This document shows, piece after piece, positions 10,849-15,983 of a stretch of 49,267 nucleotides of DNA (positions are counted from its first letter, which is position 1; each line of letters opens with the position of its first letter). Source of the DNA: Eubacteriales bacterium (lineage in GTDB: Bacteria; Bacillota; Clostridia; Oscillospirales; CAG-382); assembly GCA_045577475.1 (NCBI GenBank), contig JAZNIM010000249.1, forward strand, positions 1 through 49,267, in the 5' to 3' direction. The translations under genes and the position numbers were made by a program. Under the pieces are notes generated by a model that ran no database searches, had not been told where the DNA came from, and was given only the letters and a program-made list of their open reading frames with translations.

Positions 10849-12243
10849 TTACTTCATAATTTTTCCTGGATTGAGAATATTCTTTGAGTCAAATACGTTC
10901 TTAATTCCCTTCATTATTTCAATAGGTGTTTCGCCGTACAATTCTCTCAGGTAGCCTTTCTTTGCAAAGCCGATACCGTGCTCACCCGAAACAAGTCCGC
11001 CAAGCTCTTTAGCTTTGGTATACATGCGGTCAAAGCACTTTTCAAGAACATCTTCCCAAGCCTTTTCATCAAGTGCATCACGGCAGATGTAAACATGAAG
11101 GTTTCCGTCGCCTGCATGACCGAATGAGGGAATTCTTACCTTCATTTCATCGGCAAGTGTATGGGTAAACTTAATGAATTCGTCAACCTTATTTACGGGA
11201 ACAACAACGTCACATTCATCCATTTCGGTGGTTGAAGCCTTGATTGCTTCAAGGAATGCTCCTCTTGCTGACCAAACAGACTTTTTTCTCTCCTCGGTAT
11301 CAACGATATACACGTCAAGTGCACCAATATCAAGACAAAGGTCGGCAACAGCCTTCATGTCAGCATCAACCTGAGAATCGGTAGTGCCGTCAAAGGTAAG
11401 AAGAATGTAAGCATCATTCTTTGTATCGGGGAACTTTTTACCCAGATAGTCCTCAGAAAACAGGATTGTATCACGGGACATATATTCGATTGCTGTGGGT
11501 GTTACCTTTGATGAGAAAATCTTGGGAACAGCTTCAATTGCCGTTTTCATATCGGGAAACGGTACAAGAAGGCTGACAGAAATCTTAGGCAGAGGTACAA
11601 GTTTTAGAACAGCTTCGGTGATAATACAAAGCGTTCCTTCAGAACCTACAACCAAGTCTTTAAGGCTGTAGCCTGAGCTGTTCTTTGCAACCTTTCCGCC
11701 AAGCTTCAGAATTTCTCCGTTCGGCATAACAACCGTAAGTGCTCTTACATAGTCACGTGTAACACCGTATTTTACGGCTCTCATACCGCCTGCGTTGGTG
11801 GAAATATTACCGCCGATTGTTGCGGACTTTTCACCGGGATCCGGAGGATAGAGAAAATCGTTTTCTTCGGCAAAAGCCGCAAGCTCCATGAGAAGTACGC
11901 CCGGCTGTACCGTAACAGTCAAGGTGTTCTTATCAAGCTCCAGAATTTTATTCATTCCCGTTGTTTCAAGAAGTATTCCTCCCTCAACGGGAACAGCCGC
12001 ACCTACAAGTCCCGTTCCGCTGCCTCTGACAGTAACAGGAATGGTTCTATCCCATGCAAGCTTCATAATTTCGGATACTTCCTCGGTTGTATGCACACGC
12101 ACAAGAACCTCAGGCATTTTTTCAATGCCGCCAAGCTCATCGTGACCGTAGTCGGGATTAATGTCATCCCCTGAAATTACGTTATCAACTCCTGCAATTG
12201 CCTGCAGTTTTTTTATATCCTCGGCAGAAACTTTATTATACAT
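10849..12243 (-). CDS. FAD-linked oxidase (GlcD / D-lactate dehydrogenase family), LctD-like
   Basis: 464 aa. The FAD-binding PCMH segment reads [16 protein letters not shown]. The C-terminal part has [10 protein letters not shown]. The start overlaps the etfA stop by 8 nt. Confidence 0.8.
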
Positions 12244-13432
12244 CAGCTCTTACCTCCTTGATTTTTTCAATAAGCTTTGGCACAATCTCGTTTACATCTC
12301 CCACAACCGCATAATGTGCCACGTCAAAAATAGGAGCCGATTTATCGGTATTCACCGCCACAATGCAGTCACTTGACTTCATACCTGCGGCAAACTGAAC
12401 AGCACCCGAAATACCAAGGCAAATAATGAACTTAGGCTTTACTGTTCTTCCCGAAAGACCTATCTGGTGCTTTGCATCATAGATGTTTCCTTCAACAAGA
12501 GGACGGGAACATGCAACAACACCGCCGAGCAAATCAGCAAGTTCTTTTGCATAACCTCTCATGGTTTCACTCATTGCACCTCTGCCTACAGCAACAATAA
12601 CATCCGATTCGGATATATCAATGTCCTTTGGCTTATTAACAGAGCTGATTATGTCAATTGCGGATGTAAGGCTTGCACAATCAATATCCATTTTTACAAT
12701 TTCGCCGCTTTCCGTATCTGAAGGCACAGGTTCATTGAACACCTTATATCTTGCTGTACAGAACTGCGGACGGGTATCGGGAGAAATAATCTGTGCCATA
12801 ATATTGCCGCCGAAGGCAGGACGAATCTGCACAAGGTCGGTGTTTTCCTTCATTTCAAGAACCGTACAGTCGGCTGTAAGTCCTGCACGTCTGCGTGCTG
12901 CAACTCTCGGTGCAAGCTGACGGCCGAGATTGGTTGCACCCACAAGAATTGATGAAGGCTTAACCTTTTCAATGAAGTCACAAAATGCCGTTGTATAAGG
13001 CTCAATTCTGAAATCTTCAAAGGCTTCGTTATCATACACGAAAACCTTATCCACACCGTATCTCAGCAGCTTTTTTACGCTGTCGCCGAGATTATTTCCG
13101 ATGACAAGTGCATAAACGGGGTGTCCCGTCACGCTTGCAAGTTCTTTTGCTTTTCCCAAAAGCTCGTATGTAACTCTGTGGATTTTTTCATCGCAGTGGT
13201 CTACATACACGCACACACCGTTCCACAGCGATTTGTCGATGCTTGCCTTGACTTCTTCTCTGTATTCAATGACTCCCTCGCCCTTTTTAACGCACATCTT
13301 ACACATTTTGCAGGCAGAGGAAATATCTATCTTTCCGTTTTCATAGCTGATGGCACCGAAAGGACAGATGTCAACGAGCTTTTTTGCATTTTCTTCGTTT
13401 ACTTTGTTCTGATTAACAAACAAGCTTCCCAT
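12236..13432 (-). CDS. etfA: Electron transfer flavoprotein alpha subunit with an N-terminal ferredoxin-like 4-Cys domain
   Basis: 398 aa. The N-terminus has ICPFGAI...CKMCKMC (CP plus CxxCxxC). The remainder is EtfA-like ([12 protein letters not shown]). Confidence 0.85.
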
Positions 13433-13444
13433 TTCGGCACCTCC

Positions 13445-14233
13445 TTATATAATCTTTCTTTTCTTTATTAGCTCAAAAAGTCCCTGTGACTGTTGTTCGC
13501 TGTCACCCTCAATTGAGCTTTTCTCGGTATTCTTCTCAGGCGGGAAAATTCTTTCAACCTGAGTTGCCGAGCCGTTAAGACCATAGTTATTAACATTCTT
13601 ATCGTCAAAGTCGTCAAAGCTGAGGAACTTAACCATATCATCGGTAACGCTCTGCTTCACCTTGTACGAAGGAAGTCTTGGTGAATTTATGTCGCCGTCA
13701 ACACTTATAAGGCAAGGAAGCTTTACGGACATCTTTACAATCTTTTCGTCAAGAGTTGCCGTAACATATGCCTTACCGTCCTTAACATCATCCACGGACA
13801 AAACATTCGACACATTGGGAAGTCCCAGAAATTCCGCAACCTCCGCACCTACCTGAGCTGTATCGCCGTCGGTAGTCTGCTTACCGCAAACAATAAGGTC
13901 AAAGTCCCCTGCCTTTTTTATACCCTGTGAAAGAGTATAGGCAGTTGCAAGAACATCCGCACCTGCAAATTTTCTGTCTGACAGCACGCTTCCGCACTCT
14001 GCACCCATGCAGATAGACTCAACTATCACACCTTTAGCCTGAGGCGGTCCCATTGTTATTGTCTGAACCCTTCCGCCGAATTTTTCACACAATGAAAGAG
14101 CCAGCTCAATTCCGTACAAGTCATATGGATTCATTTTGCTCTGAATACCGTCACGTTTAAGTACGCCTGTTACAGGATCGACCTCTACATTTGACGACCC
14201 GGGAACCTGTTTTATACAAACAAGAATATTCAT
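13445..14233 (-). CDS. etfB: Electron transfer flavoprotein beta subunit
   Basis: Track ORF runs to 14257. MNILVCIKQVPG is the canonical EtfB N-terminus. ATG 14233 is preceded by GGAGAGTGGAG. Confidence 0.85.
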   Translation of the reverse strand: MNILVCIKQVPGSSNVEVDPVTGVLKRDGIQSKMNPYDLYGIELALSLCEKFGGRVQTITMGPPQAKGVIVESICMGAECGSVLSDRKFAGADVLATAYTLSQGIKKAGDFDLIVCGKQTTDGDTAQVGAEVAEFLGLPNVSNVLSVDDVKDGKAYVTATLDEKIVKMSVKLPCLISVDGDINSPRLPSYKVKQSVTDDMVKFLSFDDFDDKNVNNYGLNGSATQVERIFPPEKNTEKSSIEGDSEQQSQGLFELIKKRKII

Positions 14234-14269
14234 TTTCTCCACTCTCCTGAATATCATTTTTTCTGCATA

Positions 14270-14298
14270 ATTTTACCACAAATCAGCATTAATAACAA
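14270..14298 (-). promoter_or_regulatory. Sigma-70-type promoter (extended -10) for etfB-etfA-oxidase-Dabb
   Basis: On the minus strand: TTGTTA (14298-14293), a 17-nt spacer, then TGgTAAAAT (-10 at 14275-14270). It lies about 37 nt upstream of ATG 14233. Confidence 0.55.
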
Positions 14299-14338
14299 GT
14301 ACTTTTTCAACATTTTGTTCAATTTTGGTATAATATAC

Positions 14339-14368
14339 AAAAACGGCAGTGAATGTTTGTCACTGCCG
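14339..14368 (-). terminator. Rho-independent terminator after the HTH-serine dehydratase gene
   Basis: The minus-strand RNA reads CGGCAGUGA-caaacau-UCACUGCCG followed by UUUUUG. A second small hairpin, ATGCGG-taat-CCGCAT, sits at 14379-14394. Confidence 0.8.
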
Positions 14369-14397
14369 ATAATGTTGTATGCGGATTACCGCATCTT

Positions 14398-15840
14398 TCA
14401 TTTATTCTGTTTCAGCAAGATTTTTGCAAGTCCCGCCTCCGAGGTTTCTTTATAAGCCCTGTGCATATCCATTCCCGTTTCCTTCATTGTTCGGATTACC
14501 TTGTCAAGGGATATTTTTCTTGTATCCCAAAGGAAGCTTGCAAGGCTCACCGCGTTTATTGCACGCATTGCGGCAACTGCATTACGTTCAATACACGGTA
14601 TCTGCACAAGACCGCAAATCGGGTCGCAGGTCAGTCCAAGGTGATGTTCTATTGCAATTTCCGCCGCATATTCAATTTTTTCAATTGAAAGCTCAAAAAG
14701 CTCACCCAGTGCTGCCGCCGCCATTGCACAAGCACTGCCAACTTCCGCCTGACAACCGCATTCCGCACCCGAAATTGATGCGTTAGTCTTAATTAGATTT
14801 CCGATTATACCTGCAGTCATAAGAGCTTGTACAATTTTTTCATCACTAAAGCCTTGTTTCTGCTGCTGATAATACAGCACAGCCGGCAGAATTCCCGCAG
14901 CACCGCAGGTTGGAGCTGTTACAATTCTCTCACCCATGGCATTCTGCTCACCTATTGCAAAGGCATAAGAGCAAACCATACGCTGCTCCCTTGTTTGTGC
15001 GGATTCATCAATATGCACGCTGTTGAACAGGGATTTTGCCTTTTTTTGAACTCCAAGTCCGCCGGGAAGCGTGCCTGTATCACGAAGACCGTTTTCAATT
15101 GACTGCTTCATTGCATTCCAGATTTCATTCATATACGCTGAAAAGCCATCTGTTTCACATTCAAGTGCATATTGCCACAGCCTTATGGATTTTTCATTGC
15201 AATATCGGGCGATGTCTTCAAAATTACAAAGACTGTACACCTTTTCAGGAATTTTTACGTCATCGTTTTCAAAGACAATACTGCCTCCCCCGACGCTGAA
15301 AACTCTTGCTCTGTCAAGCTCTTTTCCGTCTTTGAAGCTCACAAGCTCCATGGTATTGGGATGTGGAATATCATCTTTAACGCAATCAAAGGTGATATTA
15401 CATTCACAGGGAGATAAAGTCTTTTTAATCACGGTGTCTGTTCCATGACCCTTACCTGTCTTTGCAAGAGAACCGAAAAGCGTTACACTAAAAAAGTCTG
15501 CATTAGGATTTCTTTCCTTAAAAGCCATACAGGCTCTTTCGGGTCCGATGGTATGTGAGCTTGAAGGACCTCGTCCGATTTTATAAAGCTCGGTCAAGGA
15601 CTCCATGCCGCAACCGCTTTTTTCGTTTGATGGTACAGCATCATCTTTAAAAAAAGATTCTACCGAAACCTTGAACAGCTTTGAAAGCATAATTAGATTT
15701 TGCCCTGACGGTTTTGAAAGACCCGACTCCCACTTTGAAACAGCTCTGTCACTTATTCCAAGGTATTCCCCCAGTTTCTTTTGAGTCAGCCCGTTATTCT
15801 CTCTCAGTTCCTTAATTCTTTTCTGCAAAAAGTTATTCAC
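14398..15840 (-). CDS. HTH_XRE DNA-binding domain fused to a single-chain iron-sulfur L-serine dehydratase (beta + alpha domains)
   Basis: Track ORF 14398..15864 (488 aa). The N-terminus is NNFLQKRIKELRENNGLTQKKLGEYLGISDRAVSKWESG (XRE HTH). Next comes YKIGRGPSSSHTIGP (SDH beta). The alpha domain follows with SGAECGCQAEVGSAC and GLTCDPICGLVQIPCIERN (Cys ligands). I prefer GTG 15840, with GAGGAG 9 nt upstream. ATG 15864 has no SD. Confidence 0.8.
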   Translation of the reverse strand: MNNFLQKRIKELRENNGLTQKKLGEYLGISDRAVSKWESGLSKPSGQNLIMLSKLFKVSVESFFKDDAVPSNEKSGCGMESLTELYKIGRGPSSSHTIGPERACMAFKERNPNADFFSVTLFGSLAKTGKGHGTDTVIKKTLSPCECNITFDCVKDDIPHPNTMELVSFKDGKELDRARVFSVGGGSIVFENDDVKIPEKVYSLCNFEDIARYCNEKSIRLWQYALECETDGFSAYMNEIWNAMKQSIENGLRDTGTLPGGLGVQKKAKSLFNSVHIDESAQTREQRMVCSYAFAIGEQNAMGERIVTAPTCGAAGILPAVLYYQQQKQGFSDEKIVQALMTAGIIGNLIKTNASISGAECGCQAEVGSACAMAAAALGELFELSIEKIEYAAEIAIEHHLGLTCDPICGLVQIPCIERNAVAAMRAINAVSLASFLWDTRKISLDKVIRTMKETGMDMHRAYKETSEAGLAKILLKQNK

Positions 15841-15874
15841 CGTTTTGTTCTCCTCTTTAAACATGGCTTAACTT

Positions 15875-15903
15875 ATTATAGACAATATCACTCCAACTAT
15901 AAA
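15875..15903 (-). promoter_or_regulatory. Candidate promoter of the HTH-serine dehydratase gene
   Basis: On the minus strand: TTTATA (15903-15898), a 17-nt spacer, then TATAAT (15880-15875). A TCAACC-N3-GGTTGA palindrome lies at 15935-15949, just upstream. Confidence 0.4.
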
Positions 15904-15983
15904 GGCTTTAAGGAAAAAATTTTCTTTTGTAAACTCAACCTCAGGTTGATATATTTGATGCCATAATAAATAAGATTAAGGAG

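Follow-up and report, generated by a model that had tools for sequence, protein, structure and literature searches.

The Eubacteriales contig JAZNIM010000249.1, whose 49,267 nucleotides are here called the window, carries on its minus strand a gene that joins an XRE-type helix-turn-helix (HTH) head to a complete single-chain L-serine dehydratase. Our analysis suggests that the product is an active enzyme that, as a dimer, probably binds a palindrome upstream of its own promoter and sets the transcription of its own gene, with negative autoregulation favoured. We regard such a self-regulating 'trigger enzyme' as the best reading because the palindrome is conserved and tracks the HTH domain. To our knowledge, few natural enzymes with a DNA-binding domain of their own have been studied (BirA, NadR and PutA), and our literature searches found no paper on an HTH-serine dehydratase fusion.

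The ORF list and translation place the fusion in a single ORF (14398..15864, minus strand, 488 aa). A sequence-only reading of this DNA had noted that ORF; it stands, but its start is most likely GTG 15840 rather than ATG 15864, because GAGGAG precedes that codon by 9 nt, the gene called in the database has 480 aa and translation in relatives begins 17-18 codons ahead of the HTH 'TQ'. The gene and its parts are as follows.

14398..15840, minus strand: CDS of the HTH-L-serine dehydratase fusion, 480 aa from the probable start GTG 15840, stop TGA at 14398-14400 (ORF list, translation, database gene call, start kept in relatives)
15658..15816, minus strand: XRE/Cro-C1 HTH domain, Pfam HTH_3, recognition helix SDRAVSKWE (Pfam, AF2 model, Foldseek, dN/dS)
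15607..15657, minus strand: linker from HTH to enzyme, variable and of low confidence (residue conservation, dN/dS, pLDDT)
15250..15606, minus strand: serine dehydratase beta domain with GPSSSHT and GKGHGTD motifs (Pfam SDH_beta, alignment to 4RQO, motifs invariant)
14425..15249, minus strand: serine dehydratase alpha (catalytic) domain with three [4Fe-4S] Cys ligands and a predicted two-fold dimer interface (Pfam SDH_alpha, Cys alignment, Foldseek, homodimer prediction)

A domain scan bore out the proposal that an HTH and a complete single-chain serine dehydratase share this ORF. On the 488-aa protein, Pfam found HTH_3 at residues 17-69 (E 7e-16; 58.4 bits against a gathering cut-off of 23), SDH_beta from residue 89 (E 3e-22) and SDH_alpha at 238-480 (E 8e-78), that is, in beta-alpha order, and the NCBIfam model for single-chain L-serine ammonia-lyase, TIGR00720, scored 401 bits against a cut-off of 345. 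A frameshift or assembly error joining two genes had been named as an alternative, but the same architecture recurs in at least 120 protein clusters at 70-84% identity; no assembly artefact is involved, and the fusion is real. The survey of its taxonomic spread that had been proposed, now run, placed the fused gene in about 42 of 401 genomes of an order sample (roughly 10%) and about 27 of 399 genomes of a class sample (roughly 7%). The architecture had been presented as unusual, which is overstated within this group: the HTH is present on about a third of all short single-chain serine dehydratases from the order sample. Nested lineages at 65-73% identity have lost it.

The enzyme part resembles the type 2 [4Fe-4S] L-serine dehydratase (LSD) of Legionella pneumophila (4RQO), with which it shares the beta-alpha single-chain fold, the three Cys ligands and the SSSHT and GKGHG motifs. 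The AF2 model of the whole protein (pLDDT 84, pTM 0.84) had 4RQO as its top Foldseek match (TM 0.70-0.75, 40% identity). GRGPSSSHTIGP and the Cys context were confirmed in the translation as first quoted, and the expectation that Fe-S ligands and catalytic residues are retained held up on alignment to 4RQO, with no ligand lost: the three cluster cysteines, Cys371, Cys413 and Cys424 in the 488-aa numbering, align with conserved Cys of the Legionella enzyme and, like the SSSHT motif and the GKGHG histidine, do not vary among 70 relatives, fused or unfused. From the alignment, the GKGHG histidine would correspond to His61 of Legionella LSD, the catalytic base (PMC12647591). Unlike the fusion protein, the Legionella enzyme is without a DNA-binding domain, has a beta domain about 33 residues longer and plugs its active site with a C-terminal Cys; this Cys tail is absent here, where the protein ends ...KILLKQNK, and it is a subtype trait that does not define the family.

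The shorter beta domain and missing tail could instead mean that the dehydratase part is catalytically dead and serves as the serine-sensing domain of an ordinary transcription factor. BzdR of Azoarcus shows that an XRE head can be followed by a sensor derived from an enzyme: it resembles the fusion protein in its N-terminal XRE head, its linker architecture and its action as a dimer, but its shikimate-kinase-like domain is catalytically dead and senses benzoyl-CoA (PMC3602430), whereas the fusion protein keeps every catalytic and cluster residue. We consider a dead enzyme quite improbable here. The shortening of the beta domain is common to the clostridial clade, fused or not; the invariance of the cluster and catalytic residues extends to unfused enzymes; dN/dS of the enzyme part is 0.05-0.08; the TIGR00720 score exceeds an equivalog cut-off; and this is the sole SDH_alpha gene, and hence Fe-S serine dehydratase gene, found in this 91%-complete genome. 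We infer that the C-terminal 400 residues form a working [4Fe-4S] L-serine dehydratase that would convert serine to pyruvate and ammonia.

In the AF2 model the HTH head has five helices (residues 6-15, 20-27, 31-39, 46-56 and 60-63), and Foldseek aligned it with the heads of P22 c2, SinR and ImmR at a TM of about 0.85 (3jxb, 3zkc and 7t8i). It thus shares the five-helix HTH_3 fold of phage-type Cro/C1 repressor heads (P22 c2, 434, SinR and ImmR), along with a two-fold palindromic site at the regulator's own promoter; those repressors dimerise through a small C-terminal oligomerisation domain, whereas the fusion protein is predicted to do so through its enzyme domain. The DNA-binding domain is kept by strong purifying selection, with dN/dS as low as that of the enzyme part (0.01-0.2 for the HTH, against 0.2-1.5 for the linker). 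Residue conservation follows the same division, the mean frequency of the commonest residue being 0.47 in the linker and 0.78-0.87 in the domains, and pLDDT drops at residues 62-80 of the model. The junction Gly-Met is kept in 44 of 45 fused genes. An internal start at this Met, giving a head-less enzyme, was dropped as a candidate because a Shine-Dalgarno-like 4-mer precedes it in just 4 of 44 fused genes. Separately, the first 140 residues, used as a query against protein representatives, returned mostly multi-HTH repeat proteins and fragments, with about 17 clusters at 50% identity spanning the junction.

The enzyme is predicted to pair as a two-fold dimer through its alpha domain. The homodimer prediction passed its mark with a score of 0.62 (best of three controls, 0.00). 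Among proteins of solved structure, 20 of 30 that pair with a copy of themselves also pass, as does 1 of 23 that stand as single chains; since Legionella LSD is dimeric (PMC12647591) and its dimer is already solved, this pass may echo that likeness. Runs agreed in at least 80% of contacts, with a partner pLDDT of at least 81, and in the model the cluster ligand loops sit in the dimer interface. A two-fold enzyme dimer would therefore carry two XRE heads on flexible linkers. XRE regulators commonly autoregulate as dimers through palindromes (PMC12565409), and the locus offers a candidate site among the following flanking features.

15850..15855, minus strand: Shine-Dalgarno sequence GAGGAG, 9 nt before GTG 15840 (read from the sequence; an equivalent site precedes the same start in relatives)
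15875..15903, minus strand: predicted sigma-70-type promoter TTTATA-17-TATAAT (consensus scan; same arrangement in 22 related loci)
15893..15898, minus strand: proximal half-site AGTTGG, part of a conserved CTTTATAGTTGR box directly after the -35 hexamer (TTTATAGTTGR count across loci)
15935..15949, no strand assigned: candidate operator, 6-3-6 palindrome TCAACC-N3-GGTTGA, centred at about -74 from the predicted start site (sole exact genome copy and core-motif counts)
14334..14368, minus strand: intrinsic terminator after the gene, 9-bp stem with 6 G-C pairs and a T-run (terminator scan)

The promoter and strong terminator of the sequence-only reading were both recovered, the former by a consensus scan at 15903-15875 and the latter by a terminator scan at 14368-14344, followed by a T-run. 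The palindrome that it had singled out proved to be a conserved element that tracks the HTH domain. TCAACC-tca-GGTTGA at 15935-15949 has no other exact copy in the 2.8-Mb assembly. Across relatives, 45 of 69 fused genes have the core motif TCAACY-N3-RGTTGA in the 260 nt before them, where shuffles average 0.5 and never exceed 2. It precedes none of 20 unfused relatives, including the nested lineages that have lost the HTH; the arms are conserved and the 3-nt centre varies freely. Exact sites number one per genome, at the fused gene, in G008, G009, G280 and G784. Presence of the motif also follows the recognition helix: with [DN]RA[VI]SKWE it is present in 39 cases and absent in 11, and with other helices present in 2 and absent in 9. 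The remaining 24 of the 69 fused genes are without the core motif, and one genus group among them with the same recognition helix has ATTCTA-N7-TAGAAT over the -10 instead. These comparisons suggest that the two heads of a dimer would bind the two-fold symmetric TCAACY-N3-RGTTGA site upstream of the enzyme's own promoter, and that the bound enzyme would thereby control transcription of its own gene.

A wider regulon was dropped because exact sites number just one or two per genome, an extra one in G511 lying inside a long ORF, and the one-mismatch sites TAAACC-N3-GGTTGA-TTGACA in G007 and G010 precede surface proteins and look like a different regulon.

The palindrome might be bound by some other XRE protein, or form the transcript-end hairpin of the upstream gene, with the fused HTH acting elsewhere or being a passenger. 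A similar palindrome precedes a gene for an HTH-BadF/BcrA-type ATPase fusion in this genome and another precedes the gene for a 276-aa HTH protein in G004, so a paralogous XRE protein could bind the site; in several loci, moreover, the site lies right after the upstream gene, sometimes within a longer GC-rich inverted repeat. Such readings are nevertheless improbable given that the site is missing even where the HTH was lost recently, that its presence goes with the recognition helix and that the HTH is under strong purifying selection. The arms are kept by sequence and not by compensating changes. As RNA the palindrome forms only a weak hairpin (-5.8 kcal/mol, z -0.78) without a T-run, on which grounds a role as an RNA terminator was rejected.

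For a self-regulating enzyme, the evidence on the sign of regulation is divided. Relative to predicted start sites, the operator centres fall into clusters near -73, -63, -52 and -40, in steps of about one helical turn (Rayleigh p 0.002-0.008 for periods of 10.5-11.5 bp across 15 lineages that are related to one another); because the promoters are consensus predictions, this phasing rests on them. These helically phased positions would suit an activator equally well, and a site centred at -74, as in the window, is unusual for a simple repressor. A dimer at the upstream palindrome might thus recruit RNA polymerase in a class I/II-like manner, giving serine-dependent induction of the enzyme; the weak -35 hexamers of the two largest classes (TTTATA and TTTACT) and the A/T-rich spacer between site and promoter are consistent with such positive autoregulation. 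XRE-type heads can activate, as lambda cI does at PRM and as PlcR and ComR do.

We consider positive autoregulation unlikely, if still a serious contender, and lean modestly towards negative autoregulation. The -52 class has consensus TTGACA-18-TATAAT promoters, which should not need activation, and in the main class a half-site falls within the promoter spacer, a position that suits occlusion. In the window's class this same-oriented half-site, AGTTGR, lies directly after the -35, about 42 bp (roughly four helical turns) from the promoter-side arm of the palindrome, and a second dimer bound there would block RNA polymerase. The box TTTATAGTTGR occurs at 24 of 69 fused loci and 0 of 8 unfused loci, always 46-48 nt from the palindrome centre (38 in one locus). 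Most autoregulating XRE proteins are repressors (PMC12565409), and a synthetic chimera of an XRE head and an active shikimate kinase acted as a substrate-responsive repressor (PMC3602430).

The trigger-enzyme reading had originally been tied to the neighbouring genes as well. That the fusion is genuine, that the enzyme looks intact and that the palindrome tracks the HTH all speak for the enzyme as its own regulator; the proposed link to the adjoining etfB-etfA-lactate dehydrogenase operon, by which the fusion protein would couple two pyruvate-forming routes, was not borne out. In its favour, the operon adjoins the fusion gene on the same strand, and both units lead to pyruvate. However, not one of the 18 loci from relatives has an Etf or lactate dehydrogenase gene within about 8 kb, the units are set apart by a strong terminator and a separate promoter, no copy of the motif with up to two mismatches occurs in 14234-14397, and the GlcD-type lactate dehydrogenase is without a match in five same-genus genomes. 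Regulation of this operon by the fusion protein is therefore very improbable.

As a self-regulating enzyme, the fusion protein would join BirA (a biotin ligase and repressor), NadR (an XRE-like HTH with NMN adenylyltransferase) and PutA (an RHH domain with proline dehydrogenase), trigger enzymes with a fused DNA-binding domain. In each of these an active metabolic enzyme acts on the genes of its pathway, in most cases including the one that encodes it. The fusion protein differs from them in that the enzyme is an oxygen-labile [4Fe-4S] serine dehydratase and the regulon is predicted to consist of one site per genome. An enzyme with its own DNA-binding domain is the simplest possible feedback loop, and because the operator is sharply defined and nearly unique, a single protein and a 120-bp piece of DNA suffice to test how this loop works. 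Orthologues with and without the head, and operators at one-helical-turn steps, offer natural variants for studying how catalytic state might be signalled to the head.

The fusion is widespread in uncultured gut and rumen Clostridia and involves an oxygen-sensitive Fe-S enzyme at the serine/pyruvate node. Speculatively, DNA binding may respond to serine turnover or to the state of the Fe-S cluster. A broader and more tentative possibility is that gut Clostridia use a portable cassette, an XRE head with a TCAAC-N5-GTTGA operator, grafted onto unrelated enzymes such as the Fe-S serine dehydratase and the BadF/BcrA-type ATPase, each of which would meter its own synthesis; in the dehydratase, either the [4Fe-4S] cluster or serine turnover might serve as the switch, through the dimer interface that keeps the two heads together. 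If so, the enzyme would report iron-sulfur or oxygen status, together with substrate load, directly to its own promoter.

The minus-strand ORF at 14398-15864 translates without interruption, and a Pfam scan finds HTH_3, SDH_beta and SDH_alpha within it, bearing out the sequence-only reading of an HTH domain and a serine dehydratase in a single ORF. The promoter and terminator proposed in that reading were both recovered by a consensus scan.

Features of the fused gene, its product and its flanks
15903-15875, minus strand: predicted promoter TTTATA-17-TATAAT (consensus scan)
15840, minus strand: start codon GTG, with GAGGAG 9 nt upstream; position matches relatives
Residues 17-69: HTH_3 (Pfam E 7e-16)
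From residue 89: SDH_beta (Pfam)
Residues 238-480: SDH_alpha (Pfam E 8e-78)
14368-14344 plus T-run, minus strand: terminator (consensus scan)

The fused protein, 480 aa in the public gene call, scores 401 bits against the NCBIfam single-chain L-serine ammonia-lyase model (cut-off 345). Because relatives start 17–18 codons ahead of the HTH 'TQ' with a good ribosome-binding site (n = 17), GTG 15840 is most likely the translation start. We rejected ATG 15864, a position only some 4 nt away from where transcription is predicted to begin.

All three domains are present in each of the best 120 database clusters (70–84% identity, 475–480 aa). Surveying the taxonomic spread of the architecture, as had been proposed, we found the fused form in around 42 of 401 sampled genomes of the same order, with the unfused short form in around 80, and in around 27 of 399 sampled genomes across the class; together the samples cover at least 15 families. 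In a tree of the enzyme part, one subclade holds 16 of 17 fused sequences and also contains two unfused sequences, most simply read as losses of the HTH. The HTH is under purifying selection equal in strength to that on the enzyme and the linker is relaxed, with dN/dS of 0.01–0.2, 0.05–0.08 and 0.2–1.5, respectively, and an agreeing pattern of residue conservation. Judged from these sequence comparisons, the fusion is genuine, old and maintained.

Despite the variable linker ahead of it, the junction Gly-Met (window 15604-15609), equivalent to the start of unfused enzymes, persists in 44 of 45 fused genes. A Shine-Dalgarno-like 4-mer precedes it in only 4 of 44, which makes internal initiation here, yielding an enzyme without its head, unlikely. 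Four short-dehydratase relatives (G081:C56:32869-34071, G225:C41:9291-10532, G120:C32:1974-3203 and G262:C19:10410-11621) sit in longer open frames of 783, 978, 758 and 1185 aa, two of which (G225, G120) contain a read-through TGA; these could represent further fusions or else artefacts. One genome (G551) has both forms side by side, one fused copy and one unfused (C8, C11).

The dehydratase part looks functional. The three conserved Cys of the Legionella enzyme (4RQO) align to the second Cys of GAECGCQ and to those of TCDP and IPC, and the cluster Cys, GPSSSHT and the GKGHGTD His are invariant among 70 fused and unfused relatives, in keeping with the earlier claim that Fe-S and catalytic residues are retained. 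We equate the GKGHGTD His with Legionella His61, the catalytic base (PMC12647591). In an AlphaFold model of the fused protein (pLDDT 84, pTM 0.84), confidence drops only at the linker, the C-terminal tail and the two loops that hold cluster ligands; the best structural match of the model is 4RQO (TM 0.70–0.75). Unlike the Legionella enzyme, the fused protein has a beta domain around 33 residues shorter and lacks the C-terminal Cys 'plug', features common to unfused clostridial relatives (around 400 aa). No SDH_alpha gene besides the fused gene was found in the 91%-complete assembly.

The palindrome noted ahead of the -35 (TCAACC-N3-GGTTGA, 15935-15949) proved to be a conserved element, TCAAC(Y)-N3-(R)GTTGA, that recurs ahead of fused genes. 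With no more than 1 mismatch over its 10 positions, the core motif was found in 45 of 69 fused loci, at most 260 nt from the start (mean of 0.5 and maximum of 2 loci after shuffling), versus none of the 20 unfused loci examined, including lineages 65–73% identical to the window's protein; in these comparisons the HTH head and the palindrome co-occur. Whether the motif occurs goes with the recognition helix: it was present with 39 and absent with 11 helices of the form [DN]RA[VI]SKWE, against 2 and 9 for other helices, a contrast inflated by relatedness. Exact copies number one per genome, at the fused gene, in G008, G009, G280 and G784, and two in the window's own genome. Its arms hardly vary, the three bases at its centre are random, it is not followed by a T-run, and the window's copy folds weakly as RNA (-5.8 kcal/mol, z -0.78); we therefore rejected a terminator and regard the palindrome as a candidate protein-binding site.

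Measured relative to consensus-predicted promoters, the operator centre lies at -72 to -74 in 22 loci as called (plus 2 called at -52 and reassigned here by eye), -62 to -65 in 12, -52 in 3 and -39 to -40 in 4. These positions follow a period of 10.5–11.5 bp (one value per lineage; Rayleigh p 0.002–0.008). Loci of the window's class share a conserved box, CTTTATAGTTGR, made up of the -35 hexamer and a half-site. The box is centred 46–48 bp from the palindrome centre, which puts the half-site, with matching orientation, around four helical turns away from the arm on the promoter side. Prediction gave a homodimer joined via the alpha domain, with a score of 0.62 (best of 3 controls, 0.00). Among reference proteins, 20 of the 30 solved as pairs of one chain reach the mark, compared with 1 of the 23 solved as single chains; different runs share at least 80% of their contacts, and partner pLDDT is at least 81. 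Since the structure of a Legionella LSD dimer is known (PMC12647591), this pass may stem from likeness. Loops around two of the cluster Cys belong to the predicted interface; the HTH heads lie outside it.

The simplest model has an active dehydratase dimer carrying two tethered XRE heads, which would bind the palindrome ahead of the fused gene itself. We infer that the palindrome is bound by the fused head rather than a paralogue; dimer state and promoter positions are likewise predictions. Phased upstream operators would equally well suit activation by the fused protein of its own gene; the half-site inside the promoter spacer favours repression, and for this reason we lean to repression. Serine turnover or the state of the cluster might be the signal. 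Enzymes carrying a DNA-binding domain have precedents in BirA, NadR and PutA. XRE regulators typically autoregulate as dimers via palindromes (PMC12565409), and in the case of BzdR, a chimera of an XRE head and a catalytically active shikimate kinase acted as a repressor that responds to substrate (PMC3602430).

The only other exact TCAACY-N3-RGTTGA in the window's genome (L053:1501-1515, equal to G000:C170:9977-9991) lies around 100 nt upstream of another XRE fusion gene (L053:1602-2432), which joins HTH_3 to a BadF/BadG/BcrA/BcrD-type ATPase domain and is truncated where the contig stops. The HTH of this second fusion shares 34% identity with that of the dehydratase, and the arrangement suggests either a head-plus-operator cassette common to both or cross-regulation. 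A related sequence, TAAACC-N3-GGTTGA, abuts a consensus -35 (TTGACA) in two same-genus genomes, G010 and G007 (L086:3001, L087:3001, L088:3001, L089:2203 and L090:3001), ahead of genes for predicted surface proteins (a serpin with SLH domains, Cu_amine_oxidN1-domain proteins), and is probably another regulator's site. The fused genes at L113-L119 and L121, from one genus of another family, keep the same type of recognition helix (SNRAVSKWE); in place of the TCAAC...GTTGA site they have in common a palindrome, ATTCTA-N7-TAGAAT, overlapping the -10 hexamer. In G528, which has two fused copies (C30:250916-252310 and C29:61263-62681), both operators are predicted at around -40, and their positions differ, 84 and 50 nt ahead of the starts. 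The fused gene of G020 (L034) has a divergent helix, DVHTVAGWE, and no palindrome; 60 nt upstream on the same strand is a sodium:alanine symporter family gene (L034:9474-11138), a possible amino-acid uptake partner.

The proposed tie to the neighbouring Etf/lactate-oxidising operon did not hold up. The etfB-etfA-GlcD-type LDH genes beside the fused gene are missing from all 18 loci of relatives compared, the two units are divided by a terminator and have separate promoters, and the etf promoter has no motif copy; a conserved partnership is thus not supported. Five same-genus genomes gave no match to this LDH. The window's fused gene is 72–74% identical to genes from other orders of the class and only 56–58% to same-genus genes, and its operator/promoter class is that of other orders (-73, CTTTATAGTTGG), not of its genus (-63, TTTACT). 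This affinity of window 10849-15949 would reflect either horizontal transfer of the region or mis-binning of the contig, the MAG having a contamination of 6.5%.

Our literature searches found no paper on an HTH–serine dehydratase fusion, and public annotation calls the fused proteins plain 'L-serine ammonia-lyase'. New here are the contrast between fused and unfused loci, the uniqueness of the site within each genome, the analysis of selection, the phasing along the helix and the second site in the window's genome. We class the fused protein as a candidate member of the trigger enzymes.
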